Position numbers and translations under genes: made by a program. The notes beneath the pieces are model-generated. The model was not told where the DNA came from. It did not search any database and saw only the letters and a program-made list of their open reading frames with translations. Shown in pieces: positions 53,823 to 64,000 of a stretch of DNA of 64,000 bases. The DNA comes from an uncultured Bdellovibrionales bacterium (lineage in GTDB: Bacteria; Patescibacteriota; Minisyncoccia; Moranbacterales; UBA1568), in contig CAZUWR010000001.1 in the NCBI GenBank assembly GCA_964624415.1, forward strand, positions 74,114 to 138,113. Direction: 5' to 3'. Each line of letters opens with the position of its first letter. Position 1 is the stretch's first letter.

Positions 53823-55886
53823 TCATTTCACCTTGAAACTTATCGTGGCACAGTTATTGCCTTCATTGGATTCGGCTACCTGACCTTGATAGTCTACACA
53901 ACAGGTATAGGTGCGATTGCCCTTGTCCCCGAGCTTAATATTGTCATTCTGTACATTCTCGGTCTTAGATTGACCGGGACCTATTTCAGACGCTTCGACC
54001 GTATCATTATCGCGGAAGACTCCGCTATTGATATAGTAGGCGATGAGTATGGATCTCGGAGGAGCTCCATTACCAATGTTTTGCACGGTGCAGTAGGGAT
54101 GGACGCGGGTATTTTTCTTGATACTCGTACCTTCTCTGAGCCACATCGCTGAGACAACAAAATCCGGATAAGCCTGTCTGACTTCAAAAGGAATTTCCGT
54201 GCAATTGTTAGTTTCATTCGTCTCATTGGCAAGATTGAGATAATCGGCACATCCCCTGAGGGTATACCAGCCCGGAACGGATGGTGCTTGGATAAGGGAG
54301 ATCATTTCTTCGTATTGATCCCTGTTGTGTGAAAAATTGGATGCTTCCGAACCGTCATCGGCAATCTGTGTCCACTGATCATTGGTACCGGGACCTTTGA
54401 TAGCGTACTGACTGCGAATGGTGGTTGCGGGTAAAACAGCCCCCGTATTGCGTATGGTCATAAATGCACCATACATTTCATTCGTGTACAGAAAAGACTT
54501 GCTTTTAATACCGATGCTCGAAACGACTAGATCCGTATCGGGCATATTGACCACACCCTCTACAACCTCAAAGACAGCTTCCGTCGAACAATTGTTACTC
54601 TCATGTTCTTCGGCATAGTCTCCTCCATTGTTATGGTCATCTTGAGGATGATCCATACAGTACACGATATTGTAGATACCGGGTTCTGTTATCCATTCCC
54701 ACAGATTGGTATTCTTAGTTTCCGTGTGAGTGGCGCCAGGATCAAGATTGCTACAGTGGGTATTGGTGCTGTCGAGTCGTCTCCAAGCACCATTTCCGCT
54801 GTGTGAGTCTTCTTTGTAGCCTTTTGACAGATAGAAATGTCCCGTAATATCTCCATTGCACATGCCTTCGCCGATGTTTTTGGCTTGAGCTGATGTATCG
54901 ATGGATTCATTGAGACCGTACTTGTAGGTTTCGACTCCCCAGGGAGTCTTAAGCCACGTTTTGACGGTAATGAAGTCGGGTAAGGTTTCCGGAATCGGTA
55001 TTTCAGCATCATCGATGTATGCATAACCGAAACCCTTGATGCCATATTCTCCGCTCACACCGTCAGCATGATCAATTGGAAGACTTGCATCTACCGAGAG
55101 ATCCTTCACAGCTACTTTTCCGATAAAATCATCGGGATTGAAATAGCCGCACTCTTTCGGGTCTTTTTGTGGAGAATAGCCGTAAGAAACTTCTCTGTAA
55201 GAGAATAAATGCCAAATTTTTCTGGTATTCATGCACTCATCTTTTGCTGCTGCTTCATACAATACCGGGGCTTGCTTCAGTTCAAGATGGAGATGTTCGG
55301 GCCATAATTTTTCTTTTCCCGTGTTTGAATCGATCACGCCACTCGTGCCGCCAATTACACCCAGTTTCTGACCCTGATAAACCCACATACCAATAGATAA
55401 GCCGGTGTCTATGCTTTTCATGTGAGCATAAAAGCTATACACTGTGCCCCCTGCCGAACATTCGCTCTTATTGACACAATAATGTTTTAGAATAACAAGG
55501 TTTCCAAAACCATGACTTTCAGCAGAACTATGAATAATACGAACTACTTTTCCTACAGCTACTGCCCTAACCTCGTCTGAGCCATTCTGACTTTGATAAT
55601 CCAAGCCCGTATGATAAGGCTGTGCATCCCAACCGTCGCAATAATCCCCAAATCGACATTTCTTCGTTTTACCTATAGCAACATCTCCCTTACAAGCAGC
55701 ACCACATAATGGCTTATAGCCCTCCTCATTTCTGTACACCTCGTCCGTATACTTCCAATCGGTTGGTTTTTGCATAATATCCGTTACGGCATATGCATAA
55801 CTTCCGACCACCAAATACAACATTGCGAATAACATGCTCGCAAAAACTTTCTTTGCTTTGTTCATTTTCTCACTCCAGGTTGTCAA
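53823..55886 (-). CDS. Secreted M23 (LytM) peptidase with two C-terminal CARDB domains
   Basis: Signal anchor. M23 motifs (HTGLDYQS ... HLHLELK). Two CARDB-like repeats, each ending in the E-x-NE-x-NN signature (ANETNETNNCTE and AESNEGNNCA). Confidence 0.8.
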   Translation of the reverse strand: MTTWSEKMNKAKKVFASMLFAMLYLVVGSYAYAVTDIMQKPTDWKYTDEVYRNEEGYKPLCGAACKGDVAIGKTKKCRFGDYCDGWDAQPYHTGLDYQSQNGSDEVRAVAVGKVVRIIHSSAESHGFGNLVILKHYCVNKSECSAGGTVYSFYAHMKSIDTGLSIGMWVYQGQKLGVIGGTSGVIDSNTGKEKLWPEHLHLELKQAPVLYEAAAKDECMNTRKIWHLFSYREVSYGYSPQKDPKECGYFNPDDFIGKVAVKDLSVDASLPIDHADGVSGEYGIKGFGYAYIDDAEIPIPETLPDFITVKTWLKTPWGVETYKYGLNESIDTSAQAKNIGEGMCNGDITGHFYLSKGYKEDSHSGNGAWRRLDSTNTHCSNLDPGATHTETKNTNLWEWITEPGIYNIVYCMDHPQDDHNNGGDYAEEHESNNCSTEAVFEVVEGVVNMPDTDLVVSSIGIKSKSFLYTNEMYGAFMTIRNTGAVLPATTIRSQYAIKGPGTNDQWTQIADDGSEASNFSHNRDQYEEMISLIQAPSVPGWYTLRGCADYLNLANETNETNNCTEIPFEVRQAYPDFVVSAMWLREGTSIKKNTRVHPYCTVQNIGNGAPPRSILIAYYINSGVFRDNDTVEASEIGPGQSKTENVQNDNIKLGDKGNRTYTCCVDYQGQVAESNEGNNCATISFKVK

Positions 55887-56515: not shown

Positions 56516-56694
56516 ATAATATGAGTAAGTTTCTTAAAGCTATACTTGAGAATAGCAAATATAAGCATGCATGTCAAAACATTTTGAATGCTGAAAAATG
56601 CCGGGATCTCATGTGGTAACAAAAGATGTAAGGCTTAATATAAGTTATCTTTCTCTTTATTCAAAAGCAATTGTGTACTTTAATTAGCAAAGAC

Positions 56695-56723
56695 TTGACT
56701 ACTGTTAATACATGCCGTATACT
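56695..56723 (+). promoter_or_regulatory. Sigma-70 consensus-like promoter TTGACT-N17-TATACT for the XRE repressor gene
   Basis: Seen directly. Implies transcription starts after the ORF-track start at 56712 and supports the ATG at 56751. Confidence 0.5.
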
Positions 56724-56750
56724 GAAAGTGTGCTTAATGAATCAAAAATT

Positions 56751-57113
56751 ATGAAAACAAGAGACTTAGCGTCAGCAGTAAGAAACCTTCGAATAAAGTC
56801 TGGTATATCCCCTGCTAAATTGGCGGAGCGATCAGAACTTTCTTCGGCGTACATTTCCAAATTGGAAAGCGGTCAGTACAAAACAATCACATTGACTACT
56901 TCAAGAGCTCTTGCGGTAGGACTAGGACTCACTCTCAAGGATTTTCTTGAGAAGATTGGGTTTTTAGAAAAACAGGATACATATAATCCGTTAAACCAAA
57001 ATTCCGCCAACCAGTTGATCGCAAATGCCCTTCGGGGAAATGGCTACACCGACCAGCAAGCACGGGACATTGTGAATTATGCCAAATATATCAAATCCAC
57101 AGACAAGCGATAA
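56751..57113 (+). CDS. XRE-family HTH transcriptional regulator (ImmR/cI-like repressor)
   Basis: Cro/C1-type HTH (LRIKSGISPAKLAERSELSSAYISKLESGQ), about 120 aa. Paired with the ImmA-like protease downstream. Confidence 0.7.
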   Translation: MKTRDLASAVRNLRIKSGISPAKLAERSELSSAYISKLESGQYKTITLTTSRALAVGLGLTLKDFLEKIGFLEKQDTYNPLNQNSANQLIANALRGNGYTDQQARDIVNYAKYIKSTDKR

Positions 57114-57798
57114 CGACCTTGATCATGAAGATGTTTCTCTTGAGGTTCTTGAATTTCAACAGAAAAAAGGCTACGTAGCACTACTCGAACAACTTACGCT
57201 ACACTTTCAAAAACTTGTTTATGATATTTTCCAAAAATACCCTAGCGAAATAACATTCCCTATTGATACAATGCCAATGGAGCATTTTTTGCTCGGGTTT
57301 GAAATCGAGTATCTATCCATAGAGGAACTTATAGAAAATGATCTCATCCCGCACTTTTGCAATCCCTTTGATCTAAAGGGATCTCATTCAAGCCCTCATT
57401 CCATAGAGGGTTTTTGGTTTTCCGATGATAAAACAAATAAAGTTTATATTTTCATAAACACATCATCCAACGCCAAGCGTCAGATGTTTACTAAAATACA
57501 CGAGCTTTTTCACTTTTGCCAAAGTCTTGATCCAGCCTTTAATGACTTTCTCACTGAAATCATCAATGAATCAACACTCCCGAAAAAATACATAAGAAAT
57601 CTTATAGAAAGAAGTGCAAACAAGGCCACGGCCATGTACTTGATACCCGAAACACATTTGCAACAAGCGTATAAAGAGACTCAAGACATTGCGGAATTGG
57701 CGCTATTGTATGGTGTTTCGCAAGATACTCTCAGAATACGACTGGAAGAGTGCAATTTAATCCGTAATCAAAATGATATTTTTGATGTTCCATTTTAA
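57079..57798 (+). CDS. ImmA/IrrE-family zinc metallopeptidase (anti-repressor protease, DUF955/M78)
   Basis: HEXXH motif HELFHF in the context IFINTSSNAKRQMFTKIHELFHFCQ. Overlaps the XRE gene by 35 nt. This is the typical ImmR-ImmA pairing of mobile elements. Confidence 0.7.
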   Translation: MPNISNPQTSDNDLDHEDVSLEVLEFQQKKGYVALLEQLTLHFQKLVYDIFQKYPSEITFPIDTMPMEHFLLGFEIEYLSIEELIENDLIPHFCNPFDLKGSHSSPHSIEGFWFSDDKTNKVYIFINTSSNAKRQMFTKIHELFHFCQSLDPAFNDFLTEIINESTLPKKYIRNLIERSANKATAMYLIPETHLQQAYKETQDIAELALLYGVSQDTLRIRLEECNLIRNQNDIFDVPF

Positions 57799-57916
57799 AA
57801 AACACAAAAATCCTGCGCTTCAACACAGGACTTTTGGCTAAACCAACGCGAGTAAACACATTGATCAGGGCAATTTCAATGTAACATATCCGAAATCGTA
57901 AAGCAAGGATATTGGC

Positions 57917-57950
57917 TCGCGCATGGATAGACGCGAGCTTTTATGTATTC
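57917..57950. other. GC-rich hairpin GCTCGCG-N10-CGCGAGC upstream of rep: candidate nick site or double-strand origin, or a terminator
   Basis: Perfect 7 bp inverted repeat followed by TTTTATG, about 160 nt upstream of the Rep_trans start codon. Coordinates approximate. Confidence 0.3.
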
Positions 57951-58106
57951 ACCCGACATATCCACAAAAGGCCTCGCAAAGGCTCTCAATCTAGGCAAAG
58001 ATGAAGTTTTTGAAGCTAGCTTCAACTTGCTTACATTTTTTGAAACATTGCACAGAATTGACGAGCGCTTGCAAACGGAGAAAAACGGAAAGGAGGCTAA
58101 CTCTGT

Positions 58107-59258
58107 ATGATTGATAGCATTGTCCTTTCCATTCAAGAAAACGCTTACACGCTAACGGACGCGCGTTGTTTCGGGAATAAACACATCAAACAAATGGGAA
58201 GGCGTTTTTCAAATACAACTTCTTTCAGCGACATGGCACCGCAACTCAAAAAGCAAGGTGTCTATTTTCCGCATGTTGAGTTTCCTCAAAGAACAAGTGG
58301 GAGGGATAAAAACAAATCATCATCCCTTCAAATACAAGTATCGCTTCCAAAGCTTCTTTATGGTACTAATCTTTTTGAAATAGACGGCTCAGAACTTCCA
58401 GCTCTATGCGCAAAACTTTCTCAATGCTTGCAAAGACTCAATATCATCATCACGGAGGAAGCAGTTGCCAACGCTACTGTCAAAAGAGTTGATTTTTGCA
58501 AATCTATCACACTACCACCTTATCTTGGCACAGCCAAACAAGTGATCCATAAGCTTCAAAAATTCAACTACAAGGCCGGATCAGACTTCACGCGCAAGGA
58601 ATTTCGAGAAGGCTCAAAAGAATGCTTTATAAAGTATCACAGTAGCACGCAAGGTTATGTCGTGTATGACAAGGCCTCTGAATTACTCGCAAATGGCTTT
58701 ACAGAAATAGAAAAAACTATTGCACGCCACCTTCAACAAGGGAATGGCTACGGCCGAGTGATACGCTTTGAGCTTTCGCTTCAAAAAAAGCAATCCATGG
58801 ACGCTTTGCTTCGGCGACACATTGGAAAGCAAAAAAACTTTACCTTGAAAGACTTGCTTTCAAGTAAAATCGCCGTCAAAGATATTCTTTTGGAAGCTTT
58901 TGATCGTATTTACTCCCCCGCTCACACCCTCTTGATCACGCTCGCGGAAATGGACGAAAATGAAATCTCTCATCATCTAGAGAGCCTCGATCTTTCTTTT
59001 GCAAAAAAGGCGACGCTTGCGTATCTAGCGAATAAGACTGCCAAATATGGTTTACGGGCAACATTGGTCGAAATGAAAACCGAAATGTCGGCAAGCAACT
59101 ATAATCGATACAAGAATGATCTCAAAGAGATGTTTCAGAACTTGGACACACTGGGCTTGGAAAAGCCAAACCTTATAAAGTTTTTACGGGATGAGCATGT
59201 TGCATTCCAACTTCTCACACCGAACAAAAGCTTGTGCGGTATTGTCAATCATTGTTAA
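58107..59258 (+). CDS. Rep_trans-family rolling-circle replication initiator (pT181 RepC / CTXphi RstA / Tn916 Orf20-like)
   Basis: Matches the family landmarks: MIDSIVLSI (iDwlafTf), KRVDFCKSI (RlDlAiD), YHSSTQGYVVYDKASE (GsrsS..iRiYDKaaE), RVIRFELSLQ (WiRvElqlr). Strong SD AAGGAGG upstream. Confidence 0.65.
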   Translation: MIDSIVLSIQENAYTLTDARCFGNKHIKQMGRRFSNTTSFSDMAPQLKKQGVYFPHVEFPQRTSGRDKNKSSSLQIQVSLPKLLYGTNLFEIDGSELPALCAKLSQCLQRLNIIITEEAVANATVKRVDFCKSITLPPYLGTAKQVIHKLQKFNYKAGSDFTRKEFREGSKECFIKYHSSTQGYVVYDKASELLANGFTEIEKTIARHLQQGNGYGRVIRFELSLQKKQSMDALLRRHIGKQKNFTLKDLLSSKIAVKDILLEAFDRIYSPAHTLLITLAEMDENEISHHLESLDLSFAKKATLAYLANKTAKYGLRATLVEMKTEMSASNYNRYKNDLKEMFQNLDTLGLEKPNLIKFLRDEHVAFQLLTPNKSLCGIVNHC

Positions 59259-59318
59259 TCGAGATATGATGATATTGTATTACTCAAATATACCTCCCAA
59301 ATATGAACACCCATCATT

Positions 59319-59519
59319 ATGAAAAATAGCACAAGGAAACAAGGAGAAGAAAAAGAATTTTACCTCGTCGAAGAGGTTGCCGAAAAATTGAGGGTATCAA
59401 AAATGACCGTGTATCGATATATCAAGGCAAGTAAGCTCAATGCCTACAAAATCGGCAAAGAGTTTCGTATCAGAAAAAGCGACCTCGACAGTTTCCTTTC
59501 ACAAGTAAGTACACAATAA
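59319..59519 (+). CDS. Excisionase/MerR-like HTH_17 DNA-binding protein (Xis-like)
   Basis: 66 aa. LVEEVAEKLRVSKMTVYRYIKASKLNAYKIGKEFRIRKSDLDSFL matches the HTH_17 pattern. Confidence 0.6.
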   Translation: MKNSTRKQGEEKEFYLVEEVAEKLRVSKMTVYRYIKASKLNAYKIGKEFRIRKSDLDSFLSQVSTQ

Positions 59520-59523
59520 TTTT

Positions 59524-61647
59524 ATGCTCAATATACAAACCGAGAAAAACAAGATATTCTCCCCTATCCGCAATAAGTGGCTTATAAATACACCCGAAGA
59601 AGAAGTGCGTCAAAACTATATTTGCAAGCTCGTGAACGAATACGGGTATAGTTTGGATCAGATTGATGAAGAGCTACAAGTAAACAATAGTCAAAGAGGA
59701 CAAGGAAAATCAAGAGCGGATATTGTCGTGTGGAAATCAAAAGAAGAAAAGCTCAATAAAAGCAATGCCTTCATAGTGATTGAGTGCAAATCAGACAACG
59801 TCACTATACACCCCGAAGACTACTATCAAGGCAACAATTATGCTTCTTGGGCAAGAGCAAAGTTTTTTGTTACGCATAACAACGCCGAAACAAAATACTT
59901 CCAAATGCTTGAAGACAAACTTCCTGTCGACTTAAACGAGATCGTAAATATCCCAACCGCAAAAGAGGTCAATGACGTAAAGAAGCTTCAAGAACTTGTC
60001 GAGGAAACAAAGGTCTTCACCAGAGACGAATTTTCAAAATTGCTTTTCAAATGCCATAATATCATCCGCAACAACGACAAACTTTCTCCCGAAGGCGCTT
60101 TTGACGAAATAAGCAAAATTTTGTTTATCAAAATACGTTACGAAAGACAGCAAGGAAAAAAAGTCTTCTCGTCTTTCCGTTTCGACGAGCTCAAGAAGTC
60201 TTACGAGGAAACCGCTTCAAAAACATCAAAACCTTTTTATCAGGTACTTTTCGACAAGACGAAAGAAGATTTTGTGGAAGATGAACTTTTTGAACTCAAT
60301 GAGGAAATCAAGATCCGTGAAAATAGCTTTACACAGATAGTCAAAGAGTTGGAACGATACAATCTTTCCGATACGGGAGATGATGTCAAAGGTATCGCAT
60401 TTGAACAATTTCTCGGCAAGACATTTCGAGGTGAGCTCGGGCAATTCTTCACCCCGCGCACGATAGTCGATTTTATGGTGGATATTCTCGATCCCAAAGA
60501 AGGCGACCTTATTTGCGACCCGTGTTGCGGTTCGGGCGGTTTCCTTATCAAAGCTTTCGATTATGTGCGCGAGAAAATCGAAGCGGATATTTTGAGTCAA
60601 AAAGAGGCCGTTAAAAACAAGTATTTTGATGAGAATTACCAAAAGCTTGATGACGAAGGAAAAGAAAAGATCGATAAAATTGTTGAAAAAGAGTTTAAAA
60701 AGCTTAATAAAGAACTCGACAATTTCTCGGAAGGATCAAGACTCTACAAGCTTTCTCATGATTGTATCTACGGAGCAGATGCCAATCCTCGCATGGCGCG
60801 CACTAGCAAAATGAACATGATCATGCACGGAGACGGCCACGGCGGGGTGCATCATAATGACGGACTGCTCGACATTGGCGGTATCTTTGAAAATCGTTTT
60901 GACATTATCTTCACCAATCCCCCTTTCGGATCGCGAGTGAACAAGGGTCAAAAAATAACGGAAAATGACAACAAGTATGCGGGTAAAAAAGACTATATCG
61001 AAAAGAAATTCGGTAGAGCAGGCTTGGATGCTATCCATAACCTCGAAAACAATATCGGAAAAAATTTGATTGATACCTACGAAACAGGAAACTTTTCGAC
61101 GCTCACGGAAGTGCTTTTTATGGAGCGCTATTTGAGAATACTCAAGCAGGGCGGAAAAATGGCGGTTGTTTTGCCCGAAGGCTTCCTCAACAATCCGAAT
61201 TTGCAAAAGGTGCGCGAATACTTCGAAGGACGTGCAAAAATAGAACTCATTGTTTCCATTCCTCAAGATGTCTTTATTGCAAGCGGTGCCACAGTAAAGC
61301 CGAGCCTTGTTTTTCTCAAGAAGTTTACCGAAACGGAAAGTACGGAATACAAAGCACTTAAAGAGAAAATAACCCAATCCGTACAAACTCAATACGAAAC
61401 CCAAAAAAGCACACTTGAGAAAGAACTCAAAGAAGCGAAAGGCGAAACCAAGAAACTCAAAAAGAAAGAACTGGACGCTTTAAACATCACTATTGAAAAT
61501 CAGATCAAACAAGAAATCAAAACCGCTTTTGACTATCAAATCCCGATAGCCGAAGTCGAAAAAGCGGGCATCACCACTACGGGAGAAAAATGTGAAAACG
61601 AGCTCGTCGAAGTGGCGAAAGAATATCACCGATACAAAAGCAAATAA
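59524..61647 (+). CDS. hsdM: Type I-like N6-adenine DNA methyltransferase (HsdM-type) with an N-terminal HSDR_N PD-(D/E)xK nuclease-like domain
   Basis: 707 aa. N-terminal EEEVRQNYICKLVNEYGY...RADIVVWKS...FIVIECKSDN fits the HSDR_N/Mrr-like D...E.K core. Then the HsdM N-domain and the N6_Mtase catalytic domain with motif I (DPCCGSGGFL) and motif IV NPPF (IIFTNPPFGS). Confidence 0.85.
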   Translation: MLNIQTEKNKIFSPIRNKWLINTPEEEVRQNYICKLVNEYGYSLDQIDEELQVNNSQRGQGKSRADIVVWKSKEEKLNKSNAFIVIECKSDNVTIHPEDYYQGNNYASWARAKFFVTHNNAETKYFQMLEDKLPVDLNEIVNIPTAKEVNDVKKLQELVEETKVFTRDEFSKLLFKCHNIIRNNDKLSPEGAFDEISKILFIKIRYERQQGKKVFSSFRFDELKKSYEETASKTSKPFYQVLFDKTKEDFVEDELFELNEEIKIRENSFTQIVKELERYNLSDTGDDVKGIAFEQFLGKTFRGELGQFFTPRTIVDFMVDILDPKEGDLICDPCCGSGGFLIKAFDYVREKIEADILSQKEAVKNKYFDENYQKLDDEGKEKIDKIVEKEFKKLNKELDNFSEGSRLYKLSHDCIYGADANPRMARTSKMNMIMHGDGHGGVHHNDGLLDIGGIFENRFDIIFTNPPFGSRVNKGQKITENDNKYAGKKDYIEKKFGRAGLDAIHNLENNIGKNLIDTYETGNFSTLTEVLFMERYLRILKQGGKMAVVLPEGFLNNPNLQKVREYFEGRAKIELIVSIPQDVFIASGATVKPSLVFLKKFTETESTEYKALKEKITQSVQTQYETQKSTLEKELKEAKGETKKLKKKELDALNITIENQIKQEIKTAFDYQIPIAEVEKAGITTTGEKCENELVEVAKEYHRYKSK

Positions 61648-61648
61648 T

Positions 61649-63013
61649 ATGACAAATCTACTCGCTACAAATGAATATCGTTTCTTGCAACTTGTGCATT
61701 TTCGCAATTGGATCAACTGGGATGTCAAAAGTTATGCGATCAACACGTTGCAATCCGAATACACATTCGTCAAATTATCCGAAGTGTTGCAAGAGCAAAC
61801 CCAAAAAGTGAAACTCAAAGACTTTCCCGACACGGAGTTTGGCATTTTAGGCGTCAACAACAAAATCGGCATTTTTGACGCTTACCTTGAAAAGGGCGCA
61901 AAAATAAACCAGCCCTACAAGAAAATGCAAACCAACTGGATCGCCTACAATCCCTACCGTGTCAATGTAGGCTCTATCGGAATAAAAACGGAGAATGAAC
62001 ACTACGAATACATAAGCAATGCCTATGTCGTTTTCAGTTGCGATGAAAGCAAACTCGATACGGAGTTCTTTTTCAGACTTTTCAAAACCGCCACCTTCAA
62101 CAATCTTGTCAAAAAATCAACCAAAGGTTCGGTTCGTCAAAACCTTTCTTTCGAATTGTTAAGCAATATCTCAATCCCACTCCCACCACTTCATATCCAG
62201 AAAGCGCTTGTGAAAGCTTATGACGCCAAACTCGCAGAGGCCGAAGCTTTGAACAACGAAGCCGAAACAACAAACAAGCAGATTAAGAGCTATCTCATGC
62301 AAGAACTCGGCATCACGATTGAAGAAAAGCAAAAAAAGAAAGGCTTGCAAATGATACGGTTTAAGGATTTGGATCGTTGGGGTGTTGACTTTGCAATTTT
62401 TACGAGCATTCTCAATAAACTCTACAAAAATACTACATTTCCGATAGAAAGACTGGGTTCACGAATAGAATACCTACAATATGGTTTGTCCGAAAAAGCA
62501 AATAGAGATGCATCAGGGGTACCAATGATCAGAATGAATAATATACAAGATAGTGACATAAACTACCAAGATTTGAAGTATATAGAAAAATGTTCAGAAA
62601 GTTACTTGTTGCAAAAAGGAGATCTCCTTTTTAATCGAACAAACAGTAAAGAGCTTGTAGGAAAAACTGCTATTTTCAACAACAATGTTAGCGCTACATT
62701 TGCCTCTTACTTGATTAGAGTCAGGTTTGAAGAAAAAACAACAGATGTTCGTTATATCAACTTTTTAATGAATTCAATAATAGGAAGGGTTCAAATAAAC
62801 ACGATCAGTAGACAAGTTTTAGGACAAGCAAATATCAATAGTCGTGAGTTGCAAGATTTTACATTTCCATTTCCACCTCTCGAAATCCAAAACAAGATAG
62901 CCGACCAAATAGACGCATGGAAGAAAGAAATCAAAACCAAGAAAGAACAAGCCGAAGCAATCAAACAACAAGCGAAAGAAGTATTTGAAAAAAGCTTGTT
63001 TGAAACAAAATAA
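61649..63013 (+). CDS. hsdS: Type I restriction-modification specificity subunit (two target-recognition domains)
   Basis: Two TRDs separated by conserved HsdS central and C-terminal coiled-coil repeats (LPPLHIQKALVKAYDAKLAEAEAL ... FPPLEIQNKIADQIDAWKKEIKTKKEQAEAIKQQAKE). The start ATG is 2 bp after the hsdM stop. Confidence 0.85.
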   Translation: MTNLLATNEYRFLQLVHFRNWINWDVKSYAINTLQSEYTFVKLSEVLQEQTQKVKLKDFPDTEFGILGVNNKIGIFDAYLEKGAKINQPYKKMQTNWIAYNPYRVNVGSIGIKTENEHYEYISNAYVVFSCDESKLDTEFFFRLFKTATFNNLVKKSTKGSVRQNLSFELLSNISIPLPPLHIQKALVKAYDAKLAEAEALNNEAETTNKQIKSYLMQELGITIEEKQKKKGLQMIRFKDLDRWGVDFAIFTSILNKLYKNTTFPIERLGSRIEYLQYGLSEKANRDASGVPMIRMNNIQDSDINYQDLKYIEKCSESYLLQKGDLLFNRTNSKELVGKTAIFNNNVSATFASYLIRVRFEEKTTDVRYINFLMNSIIGRVQINTISRQVLGQANINSRELQDFTFPFPPLEIQNKIADQIDAWKKEIKTKKEQAEAIKQQAKEVFEKSLFETK

Positions 63014-63016
63014 CCT

Positions 63017-64000
63017 ATGAAAAAAGCGGTCGCCTACTTTCGCGTATCGTCGAAAGAACAAAAAGTCGAAGGGTACTCAATCCCCGCTCAAAAGCGGTTG
63101 ATTTTGGATTTCGCCAAGCGTCAAGGCATCAAAATCGTGCAAGAATTTGAAGACGACGAAACCGCCAAAAAATCGGGACGAAAAGGCTTTACTGAAATGA
63201 TCCAATACCTCAAAGATCACAAAGATGTCGATGCTATCGTGGTTGAAAAAACCGATCGTCTCTATCGCAACTTCAAAGACTATGTGATTGTAGATGATCT
63301 GAGTCTTACGGTATACTTGGTCAAAGAAAACGAGGTTATCGGTAAAAATGCCTCATCGCATCAAAAATTCATTCACGGGATCAAGGTGCTCATGGCCAAA
63401 AACTATGTCGACAATCTCAGTGAGGAATCTCGAAAAGGACTTGATCAAAAAGCGAGTGGCGGGGTGTATCCCAGCTCAAGCATCCCTCTCGGATACAAAT
63501 TCCGTAAGCAAGACGGCAAAACCATTCCCGTGATCGACGAGGTGCATCAGGATATACCCGTGCGTATGTTCAATCTCTATGCTACGGGACGGTATTCCCT
63601 GCTCTCACTCCTCAATCAACTCAAAGAAGAGGGCTTATTGCGATCAGAGCGTTTTGCCACGCATCCGAGAATCAAAACCATCACAAAGAGCTCGGCTCAA
63701 AGAATACTTCGGAATCCTTTCTATTACGGCGATTTTATGTGGCGGGAAAAACTGCATAAGGGAACGCATGATCCGATCATTACAAAGGCTTTATGGGATA
63801 AAGTGCAAACCGCTCTCAATCGTTTTGAGAATAAAGAACTGCTCTCAAAATATAATTCACTCCCCTTTGCTTTCAAAGGATTGTTTGTATGCGGTGAGTG
63901 CGGGCGTGCCATAACAGCGGAAAAGAAAGTGAAAAAATCGGGACTGGAATATACTTACTATCATTGCACGAAATTCAATACCAACTGCACGCAAAAAGCC
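63017..64000 (+). CDS. Large serine recombinase (N-terminal resolvase domain, recombinase domain, zinc-ribbon), 3' end outside the window
   Basis: AVAYFRVSSKEQ catalytic Ser motif. Recombinase-domain pattern. CGECGR...YYHC zinc ribbon beginning near the window end. Open to position 64000. Confidence 0.85.
   Translation, partial: MKKAVAYFRVSSKEQKVEGYSIPAQKRLILDFAKRQGIKIVQEFEDDETAKKSGRKGFTEMIQYLKDHKDVDAIVVEKTDRLYRNFKDYVIVDDLSLTVYLVKENEVIGKNASSHQKFIHGIKVLMAKNYVDNLSEESRKGLDQKASGGVYPSSSIPLGYKFRKQDGKTIPVIDEVHQDIPVRMFNLYATGRYSLLSLLNQLKEEGLLRSERFATHPRIKTITKSSAQRILRNPFYYGDFMWREKLHKGTHDPIITKALWDKVQTALNRFENKELLSKYNSLPFAFKGLFVCGECGRAITAEKKVKKSGLEYTYYHCTKFNTNCTQKA

Follow-up and report, generated by a model that had tools for sequence, protein, structure and literature searches.

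Can a pair of Type I-like modification genes restrict DNA without an HsdR subunit? The question is raised by the locus at 59524-63013 of a 64,000-nucleotide (nt) stretch of contig CAZUWR010000001.1 (assembly GCA_964624415.1, positions 74,114 to 138,113), which probably comes from a bacterium of the Paceibacterota, in the candidate phyla radiation (CPR), and is called the window below. The locus encodes a methyltransferase (M) with a nuclease-like N terminus, followed by a specificity subunit (S). The original prediction, made from the sequence alone, offered three readings of it: a methylation-only orphan, an M2S complex in which M contributes a nuclease in a noncanonical manner, or a Type I system whose hsdR lies beyond the window. 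The second is the best supported of the three. We propose, with a probability of about 0.68, that the pair is a complete, HsdR-independent restriction-modification (RM) enzyme of the two-subunit Type IIB kind (BcgI/BsaXI-like). What we do not retain is the noncanonical label, as two-subunit Type IIB enzymes are already known to be built in this way, and no new mechanism is involved.

The features recognized in the two genes are the following.

59524-61647, plus strand: RM subunit of 707 amino acids (aa), with a nuclease domain, a helical connector, a gamma-class N6-methyladenine (m6A) methyltransferase (MTase), and C-terminal helices.
59593-59955, plus strand: HSDR_N_2 PD-(D/E)xK nuclease domain, residues 24 to 144 (Pfam PF13588).
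59671-59673 (E50), 59719-59721 (D66), 59782-59784 (E87), and 59788-59790 (K89), plus strand: putative catalytic residues, from the alignment with BsaXI.
60379-61323, plus strand: N6-adenine MTase domain, approximately residues 286 to 600 (Pfam N6_Mtase, E value 5.9e-34).
60517-60543 and 60916-60927, plus strand: MTase motif I (DPCCGSGGF) and motif IV (NPPF).
61330-61644, plus strand: C-terminal region of the RM subunit, residues 603 to 707 (AlphaFold2 secondary structure).
61649-63013, plus strand: specificity subunit S, 454 aa, with two target recognition domains (TRDs; two Pfam Methylase_S stretches).

We analyzed the sequence and predicted structure of the RM subunit. Pfam and the motifs bore out its predicted layout, namely, an N-terminal PD-(D/E)xK module in front of a complete MTase domain, in which motif I (residue 332) lies ahead of motif IV (residue 465). 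The module had been described as HSDR_N-like, and a profile of this type indeed matched, but the family is neither PF04313 nor Mrr_cat: residues 24 to 144 hit HSDR_N_2 with an E value of 1.4e-23 and 83.5 bits (cutoff, 25). In a sequence search of the PDB, the best match was the RM chain of BsaXI (8w0p_A), which aligned with residues 166 to 615 and, weakly, with the N-terminal domain, the PD...ExK strands being in register. The matches to the MTase part included HsdM of StySJI, HsdM of EcoKI, and the BsaXI MTase. The AlphaFold2 model of the full-length protein (predicted local distance difference test [pLDDT], 77.7) had BsaXI RM (8w0p_A) as its top PDB fold match (E value 7.6e-19, ∼860 aligned columns), which outranked the HsdM structures. 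Modeled separately, residues 1 to 165 (pLDDT, 86.8; predicted template modeling score, 0.85) adopted an alpha-beta-beta-beta-alpha-beta core, whose PDB matches were, in order, BsaXI (E value 1e-4), the Type IIG enzyme BpuSI, a putative restriction endonuclease, and the nuclease of EcoR124I HsdR.

BsaXI therefore served as our main reference. It is a Type IIB enzyme of (RM)2S composition whose structures were determined by cryo-electron microscopy (PMC11997821; PDB 8w0p/8w2p/8w2q). Its RM chain is composed of a PD-(D/E)xK nuclease (residues 1 to 192), a multihelical connector, the MTase, a knob, and a paddle, and replacement of E73, D90, E105, or K107 by alanine abolishes cleavage, these residues being "absolutely conserved" across Type IIB enzymes (PMC11997821). 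In our alignments, they correspond to E50, D66, E87, and K89, respectively, all four putative catalytic residues of the module being intact. The two proteins share an N-terminal nuclease with an E...D...ExK tetrad, a helical connector, and a gamma-class m6A MTase, and both pair with a separate HsdS-like, two-TRD subunit without a translocase. They differ in size (916 aa for BsaXI RM) and share only ∼19 to 20% identity. In BsaXI, a 117-aa knob (residues 626 to 742) follows the MTase core and precedes a long paddle, reported as unique to BsaXI relatives (PMC11997821), whereas our protein has no knob and only a ∼65-residue predicted helical hairpin.

The second gene also fits this design. A two-TRD HsdS was predicted 2 bp downstream of M and is indeed found there, although the gap is of 1 nt only, between the M stop codon (TAA, 61645-61647) and the S start codon (ATG, 61649). 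This start agrees with the gene call on the Logan contig L001 described below, while the list of open reading frames (ORFs) alone opens the frame at 61592. S matched the PADLOC Type I specificity model Specificity_I over its full length (443 bits), and its PDB matches were EcoKI S (E value 2e-20) and S.BsaXI (1.5e-15).

We then looked for an HsdR subunit, which had been predicted to be missing from the element carrying the pair. A phmmer search with EcoKI HsdR found nothing in the 64-kb window, where the ten largest of the remaining ORFs have housekeeping functions (RecJ, Pif1, PriA, GltX, P-type ATPase, ABC-F, and GH130). The 8036-bp contig L001 has the same sequence as window positions 56528-64000 and continues for 563 bp past the window, and these 563 bp contain no hsdR either. 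Extending the survey to homologous loci, we found no HsdR in 87 loci, 85 of which were either relatives of our locus or copies of this region of the window; with filters off, the best phmmer match of EcoKI HsdR to these loci had an E value of 0.1, and the self-control performed as expected. Pfam annotation recovered no HsdR among the representatives of the neighbor-gene clusters, nor among the 25 commonest families listed for all 45 flanking ORFs with 700 aa or more (PtuA-like ATPases were scanned separately), a list that does not strictly exclude one isolated case. On the Type IIB reading, the lack of HsdR is to be expected, as M would bring its own nuclease for cutting DNA. The locus combines a nuclease and an MTase in one chain, an intact tetrad, and a separate two-TRD S, as in Type IIB enzymes, and we found no translocase gene within the window, over the next 563 bp, or at the related loci.

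Comparison with other characterized systems pointed in the same direction. BcgI-like two-subunit Type IIB enzymes have a 2RM:1S composition and use neither ATP nor a translocase (PMC11997821, PMC3874165), and BcgI, BaeI, NgoAVIII, and BveI follow the 2RM:1S logic that we propose here, a likeness drawn from their description and not from sequence. Type I systems such as EcoKI resemble our locus in their homologous M core and S, in their tightly coupled genes, and in the bipartite site to be expected. They differ by the presence of the HsdR motor subunit, the N-terminal nuclease of which is fused to M in our protein; an HsdM-type protein and a two-TRD HsdS are present at our locus, but no HsdR is encoded with them. 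Type IIG enzymes (MmeI, BpuSI, and AloI) combine nuclease, methylase, and TRD(s) in one polypeptide, whereas the TRDs are encoded here by a separate gene.

The most informative comparison at the level of function was with the hsdRM and hsdS genes of Trichormus (Anabaena) variabilis plasmid D, which block conjugation in the native host and in Nostoc strains and which, first annotated as Type I, were read as Type IIB by the authors (bioRxiv 10.1101/2025.10.21.683720). A tblastn search of plasmids at an E value of ≤1e-20 did not recover the Anabaena plasmid; we obtained it by accession (NC_021575.1) and compared it directly. Its HsdRM (917 aa) contains HSDR_N_2 (E value 8.6e-24) and N6_Mtase, as does our RM subunit, and aligns with residues 22 to 659 of the latter at 24% identity (E value 2e-41), nuclease motifs included. 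Like our pair, it resides on a mobile replicon with S after RM. The Anabaena pair restricts incoming DNA in vivo without HsdR. Unlike our protein, HsdRM is of BsaXI size, and it is carried by a plasmid rather than by an integrative element.

The C-terminal region of the RM subunit (residues 603 to 707) is predicted to contain two long helices (603 to 637 and 641 to 668), a K/E-rich turn, short strands, and a terminal helix. Residues 603 to 668 would form an antiparallel hairpin of ∼65 residues with the Lys/Glu-rich turn KEAKGETKK, reminiscent of a shortened BsaXI paddle, and a conserved DYQIPIAEVEKAGITTTGE segment follows. We obtained a weak alignment (E value 0.008) with the C terminus of the A. 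variabilis HsdRM, which includes a DY-IP-AEV-KAGI motif. Binding of the S coiled coil, or a paddle-like function, may be considered as a candidate role for this region.

By analogy with the characterized enzymes, we infer the stoichiometry, the cleavage activity, and the cleavage geometry of the pair, as well as its role in defense or addiction. As in BsaXI and BcgI, two 707-aa RM subunits would bind one S to form an (RM)2S complex, in which the two TRDs of S would read a bipartite target. The MTase domains would use S-adenosylmethionine to methylate one adenine per half-site and so protect the host, and the N-terminal PD-(D/E)xK domains would cut near unmethylated sites with Mg2+, requiring neither ATP nor a translocase. 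Such an enzyme could serve in defense or in stabilization of the element that carries it.

An alternative is that the pair only methylates DNA, as an M2S complex in which HSDR_N_2 is silent or has a DNA-binding or regulatory function and which gives the element an epigenetic means of protection or regulation. In general, orphan pairs of M and S do occur, and both NCBI and PADLOC label this family as a methylase or a Type I M. The PADLOC models concerned, PDLC03018 and PDLC03034, are labeled "Type I methyltransferase" but also cover the nuclease domain, and they match the Anabaena HsdRM as well; as PADLOC calls this restricting protein "MTase_I," the label is no argument against a nuclease function in our family. 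We therefore turned to the conservation of the tetrad. E50, D66, E87, and K89 are invariant in all 48 homologs with 60 to 84% identity, a sign that purifying selection acts on the active site. Among ∼108 distant representatives containing the domain, D66 is found in 105, K89 in 99, E87 in 91 (with D in 7 more), and E50 in 89 (with D in 8 more). The E-x-K signature has been lost in a few lineages (P0247, P0250, P0259, P0253, P0254, P0296, and P0301), the first five of which we count in favor of a methylation-only pair. The lineages without E-x-K mostly retain the Asp (e.g., IAIVCHA and IIIICQT), and in one of them, P0250 (976 aa), a TRD-like region is joined to the C terminus.

We consider a methylation-only function unlikely. 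The conserved tetrad speaks against it, and the predicted fold is confidently of the PD-(D/E)xK type, with restriction nucleases as the nearest structures. Moreover, proteins with the same Pfam architecture cleave or restrict DNA. An orphan methylase has no nuclease function associated with it, whereas the M protein of our locus carries, as judged from its sequence, a fused nuclease domain with an intact tetrad.

We then examined the relatives of the RM subunit and their genetic neighborhood. More than 8000 homologs sharing words with it were scored, and HSDR_N_2 and N6_Mtase were both present in almost all of the 120 listed. An exhaustive search yielded 795 representatives (clusters at 50% identity) at an E value of ≤1e-30, and relatives are encoded in the genomes of at least 537 species. 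With the N-terminal 161 aa alone, the word-based search returned only truncated gene fragments. Some distant relatives of 800 to 1186 aa carry fused TRDs. In 83 loci, analyzed with flanks of up to 10 kb, S follows M wherever the contig continues, with few exceptions (an intervening ORF, a split hsdS, or no recognizable S). Directly after S (e.g., at L007:11079-12701 and L020:7490-8137), 55 of the 83 loci encode an ABC-type ATPase with AAA_21/AAA_15 domains, and in 19 of these 55 it is itself followed by a gene for a PtuB/HNH-like protein of ∼215 aa. According to PADLOC, the ATPase is closest to PtuA and also matches mad3, and the PtuA and PtuB pair is Septu-like; an earlier assignment of this ATPase to the OLD nuclease family was dropped on these grounds. 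These genes may represent either a Septu system that regularly accompanies RM pairs of this family or a functional RM-ATPase module, as in the MADS system. Other neighbors in the related loci are GIY-YIG+DUF4357 proteins, FokI-cleavage-domain proteins, and GmrSD.

These neighbors raise the possibility that RM and S are the core of a larger system and that a partner, either a PtuA/MAD3-like ABC ATPase or HsdR, is encoded elsewhere in the genome. MADS, which discriminates self from nonself by methylation, provides the closest parallel: the MAD2 model aligns with the M protein over its full length, MAD5 gives a weak match to S, and in MADS, mad2, mad3, and mad5 interact genetically, deletion of mad5 being lethal unless mad2 or mad3 is also removed. 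Yet the NCBIfam scores of M against MAD2 (288 bits; cutoff, 720) and of S against MAD5 (48; cutoff, 400) are far below the equivalog cutoffs, and the other six mad genes are all missing; we rejected membership in MADS. PtuA and PtuB form a known independent system, Septu, and defense genes often cluster. The elements of the window and of its nearest relative (L004, see below) retain M and S without the ATPase, and RM and S alone suffice for BcgI, BsaXI, and the Anabaena HsdRMS. Dependence on such a partner is, in our opinion, improbable, a little more so than a function limited to methylation.

A bolder proposal, to which we give some credit but which is doubtful, is that the relatives would form a very large unrecognized clade of knob-less, Type IIB-like nuclease-methylases, mostly hard-wired to a PtuA/MAD3-like ATPase, and the CPR element would carry the autonomous, self-mobilizing core. 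If true, many apparent orphan M+S pairs would be complete restriction systems, and the linkage to the ATPase would hint at a MADS-like cooperation between an M-borne nuclease and an ATPase.

A Type I system with hsdR just outside the window, or immediately after the recombinase, is refuted for the immediate neighborhood: the window does end within the recombinase gene and hides what lies downstream, but on L001 this gene ends at the equivalent of position 64540 over a tRNA gene, which is the end of the element, the corresponding genes of the nearest relative are unrelated to hsdR (a PLD-like protein and a glutamine synthetase), and neither the window nor the 87 loci contain an HsdR-like ORF.

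The HsdR-independent Type IIB-like enzyme remains our preferred reading, and the survey provided additional support for it. In ∼30 of the 83 loci, a small HTH_3/XRE ORF of 62 to 100 aa, belonging to one of two sequence families, abuts the start of M at a distance of 1 to 8 nt (e.g., L002:9802-9999 and L003:9775-9999), a position like that of the controller (C) proteins of RM systems. Several points nevertheless weigh against it. We found no biochemically tested member of this clade in the literature, and the identity with BsaXI and the Anabaena enzyme is only ∼19 to 24%. The BsaXI knob is absent, and paddle residues are also needed for cleavage in BsaXI. The loss of E-x-K in some lineages implies that the domain is able to decay into a methylase-only form, and the frequent ATPase neighbors, together with the MAD2 match below the cutoff, suggest that relatives may need partners that are absent here. 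Finally, our analysis covered 64.6 kb of a 272-kb contig, and a partner could be encoded in trans elsewhere in the genome.

We next considered the genetic context of the pair, which had been predicted to be carried on a mobile element, with a serine recombinase as the next gene. Both predictions were borne out by the genes around the pair and by the overlap with a tRNA gene. The element extends from 56528 to ∼64563 and comprises, in order, genes for an XRE helix-turn-helix (HTH) protein, an ImmA/IrrE peptidase, a 55-aa ORF, a replication initiator, an HTH_17 protein, RM, S, and the recombinase. Those other than the RM pair and the 55-aa ORF are located as follows.

56712-57113, plus strand: XRE HTH protein (Pfam).
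57079-57798, plus strand: ImmA/IrrE M78 peptidase (Pfam).
58107-59258, plus strand: Phage_CRI/G2P-like replication initiator (Pfam).
59319-59519, plus strand: HTH_17 (excisionase/MerR-like) protein, 66 aa (Pfam HTH_17, E value 3.8e-15).
63017-64000 and beyond the window edge, plus strand: large serine recombinase (integrase) with Resolvase, Recombinase, and Zn_ribbon_recom domains.

On L001, the full-length recombinase has 507 aa, with XisF/Ccr-like NCBIfam matches. The last part of its gene runs into a tRNA gene carried by the other strand (Rfam tRNA, 33 bits, E value 1.8e-5), and this overlap marks the end of the element. The tRNA gene is cut by the end of the contig; by reading of the anticodon loop, it would encode tRNA-Gln(CUG). 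The contig has no terminal overlap and is not circular. The G+C content is 0.375 to 0.41 in the element region (56.5 to 64 kb) versus 0.44 to 0.51 for most of the remaining window. Given this lower G+C content and the XRE/ImmA, replication, and HTH_17 genes, we consider the RM pair to be the sole cargo of an integrative element of ∼8 kb, integrated at a tRNA gene by the large serine recombinase and possibly replicative. A search for att-like direct repeats and for inverted repeats revealed only short ones at chance level; we accordingly rejected phase variation of hsdS by the recombinase and kept the latter as the integrase of the element. The HTH_17 ORF ends 4 nt upstream of the RM gene and fills, in the window and in L004, the controller-like slot that is occupied by HTH_3 ORFs in other relatives. 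The protein could act as an excision factor of the element or as a controller of the RM gene. Upstream, the element is adjoined by a gene unrelated to the RM pair (53823-55886, minus strand), which encodes a 687-aa protein with a signal-like N terminus, a Peptidase_M23 domain, and C-terminal CARDB repeats.

The nearest relative (L004/L005) is found on a 332-kb contig of a "Candidatus Paceibacterota" metagenome-assembled genome. Its gene order matches that of the window (HTH_17, M, S, and serine recombinase), and its recombinase gene also overlaps a tRNA gene, here tRNA-Asn, beyond which lie the two genes mentioned above. The M proteins are 84% identical, and an 84%-identical protein, P0002, is the basis for placing our host, as probable, in the Paceibacterota. 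Identity is far lower for the other genes (HTH_17, 52%; S, 51%; recombinase, 34%; replication protein, 24%). The low identity of the S subunits suggests that they differ in specificity. Conservation of the RM gene far exceeds that of the element backbone, and outside the CPR, the nearest relatives of M, at ∼60% identity, are mostly from Bacteroidota. Taken together, these sequence comparisons suggest that the RM module is exchanged among element backbones and across phyla.

The main value of these results lies in annotation, as a nuclease-methylase fusion with its S subunit, which would be a complete system, is called a lone methylase by standard tools. The NCBI name of the family is "N-6 DNA methylase," and from this name and the PADLOC labels, we expect that defense finders would probably list these loci among orphan methylases or as Type I systems that are incomplete. 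Members of the family occur widely, both in Bacteroidota and CPR bacteria and in further phyla, and where their pairs are counted as orphan methylases, the restriction capacity of genomes would be underestimated. The locus described here provides a compact example, in a CPR bacterium, of a small element, integrative and possibly replicative, that carries an RM system and no other cargo.

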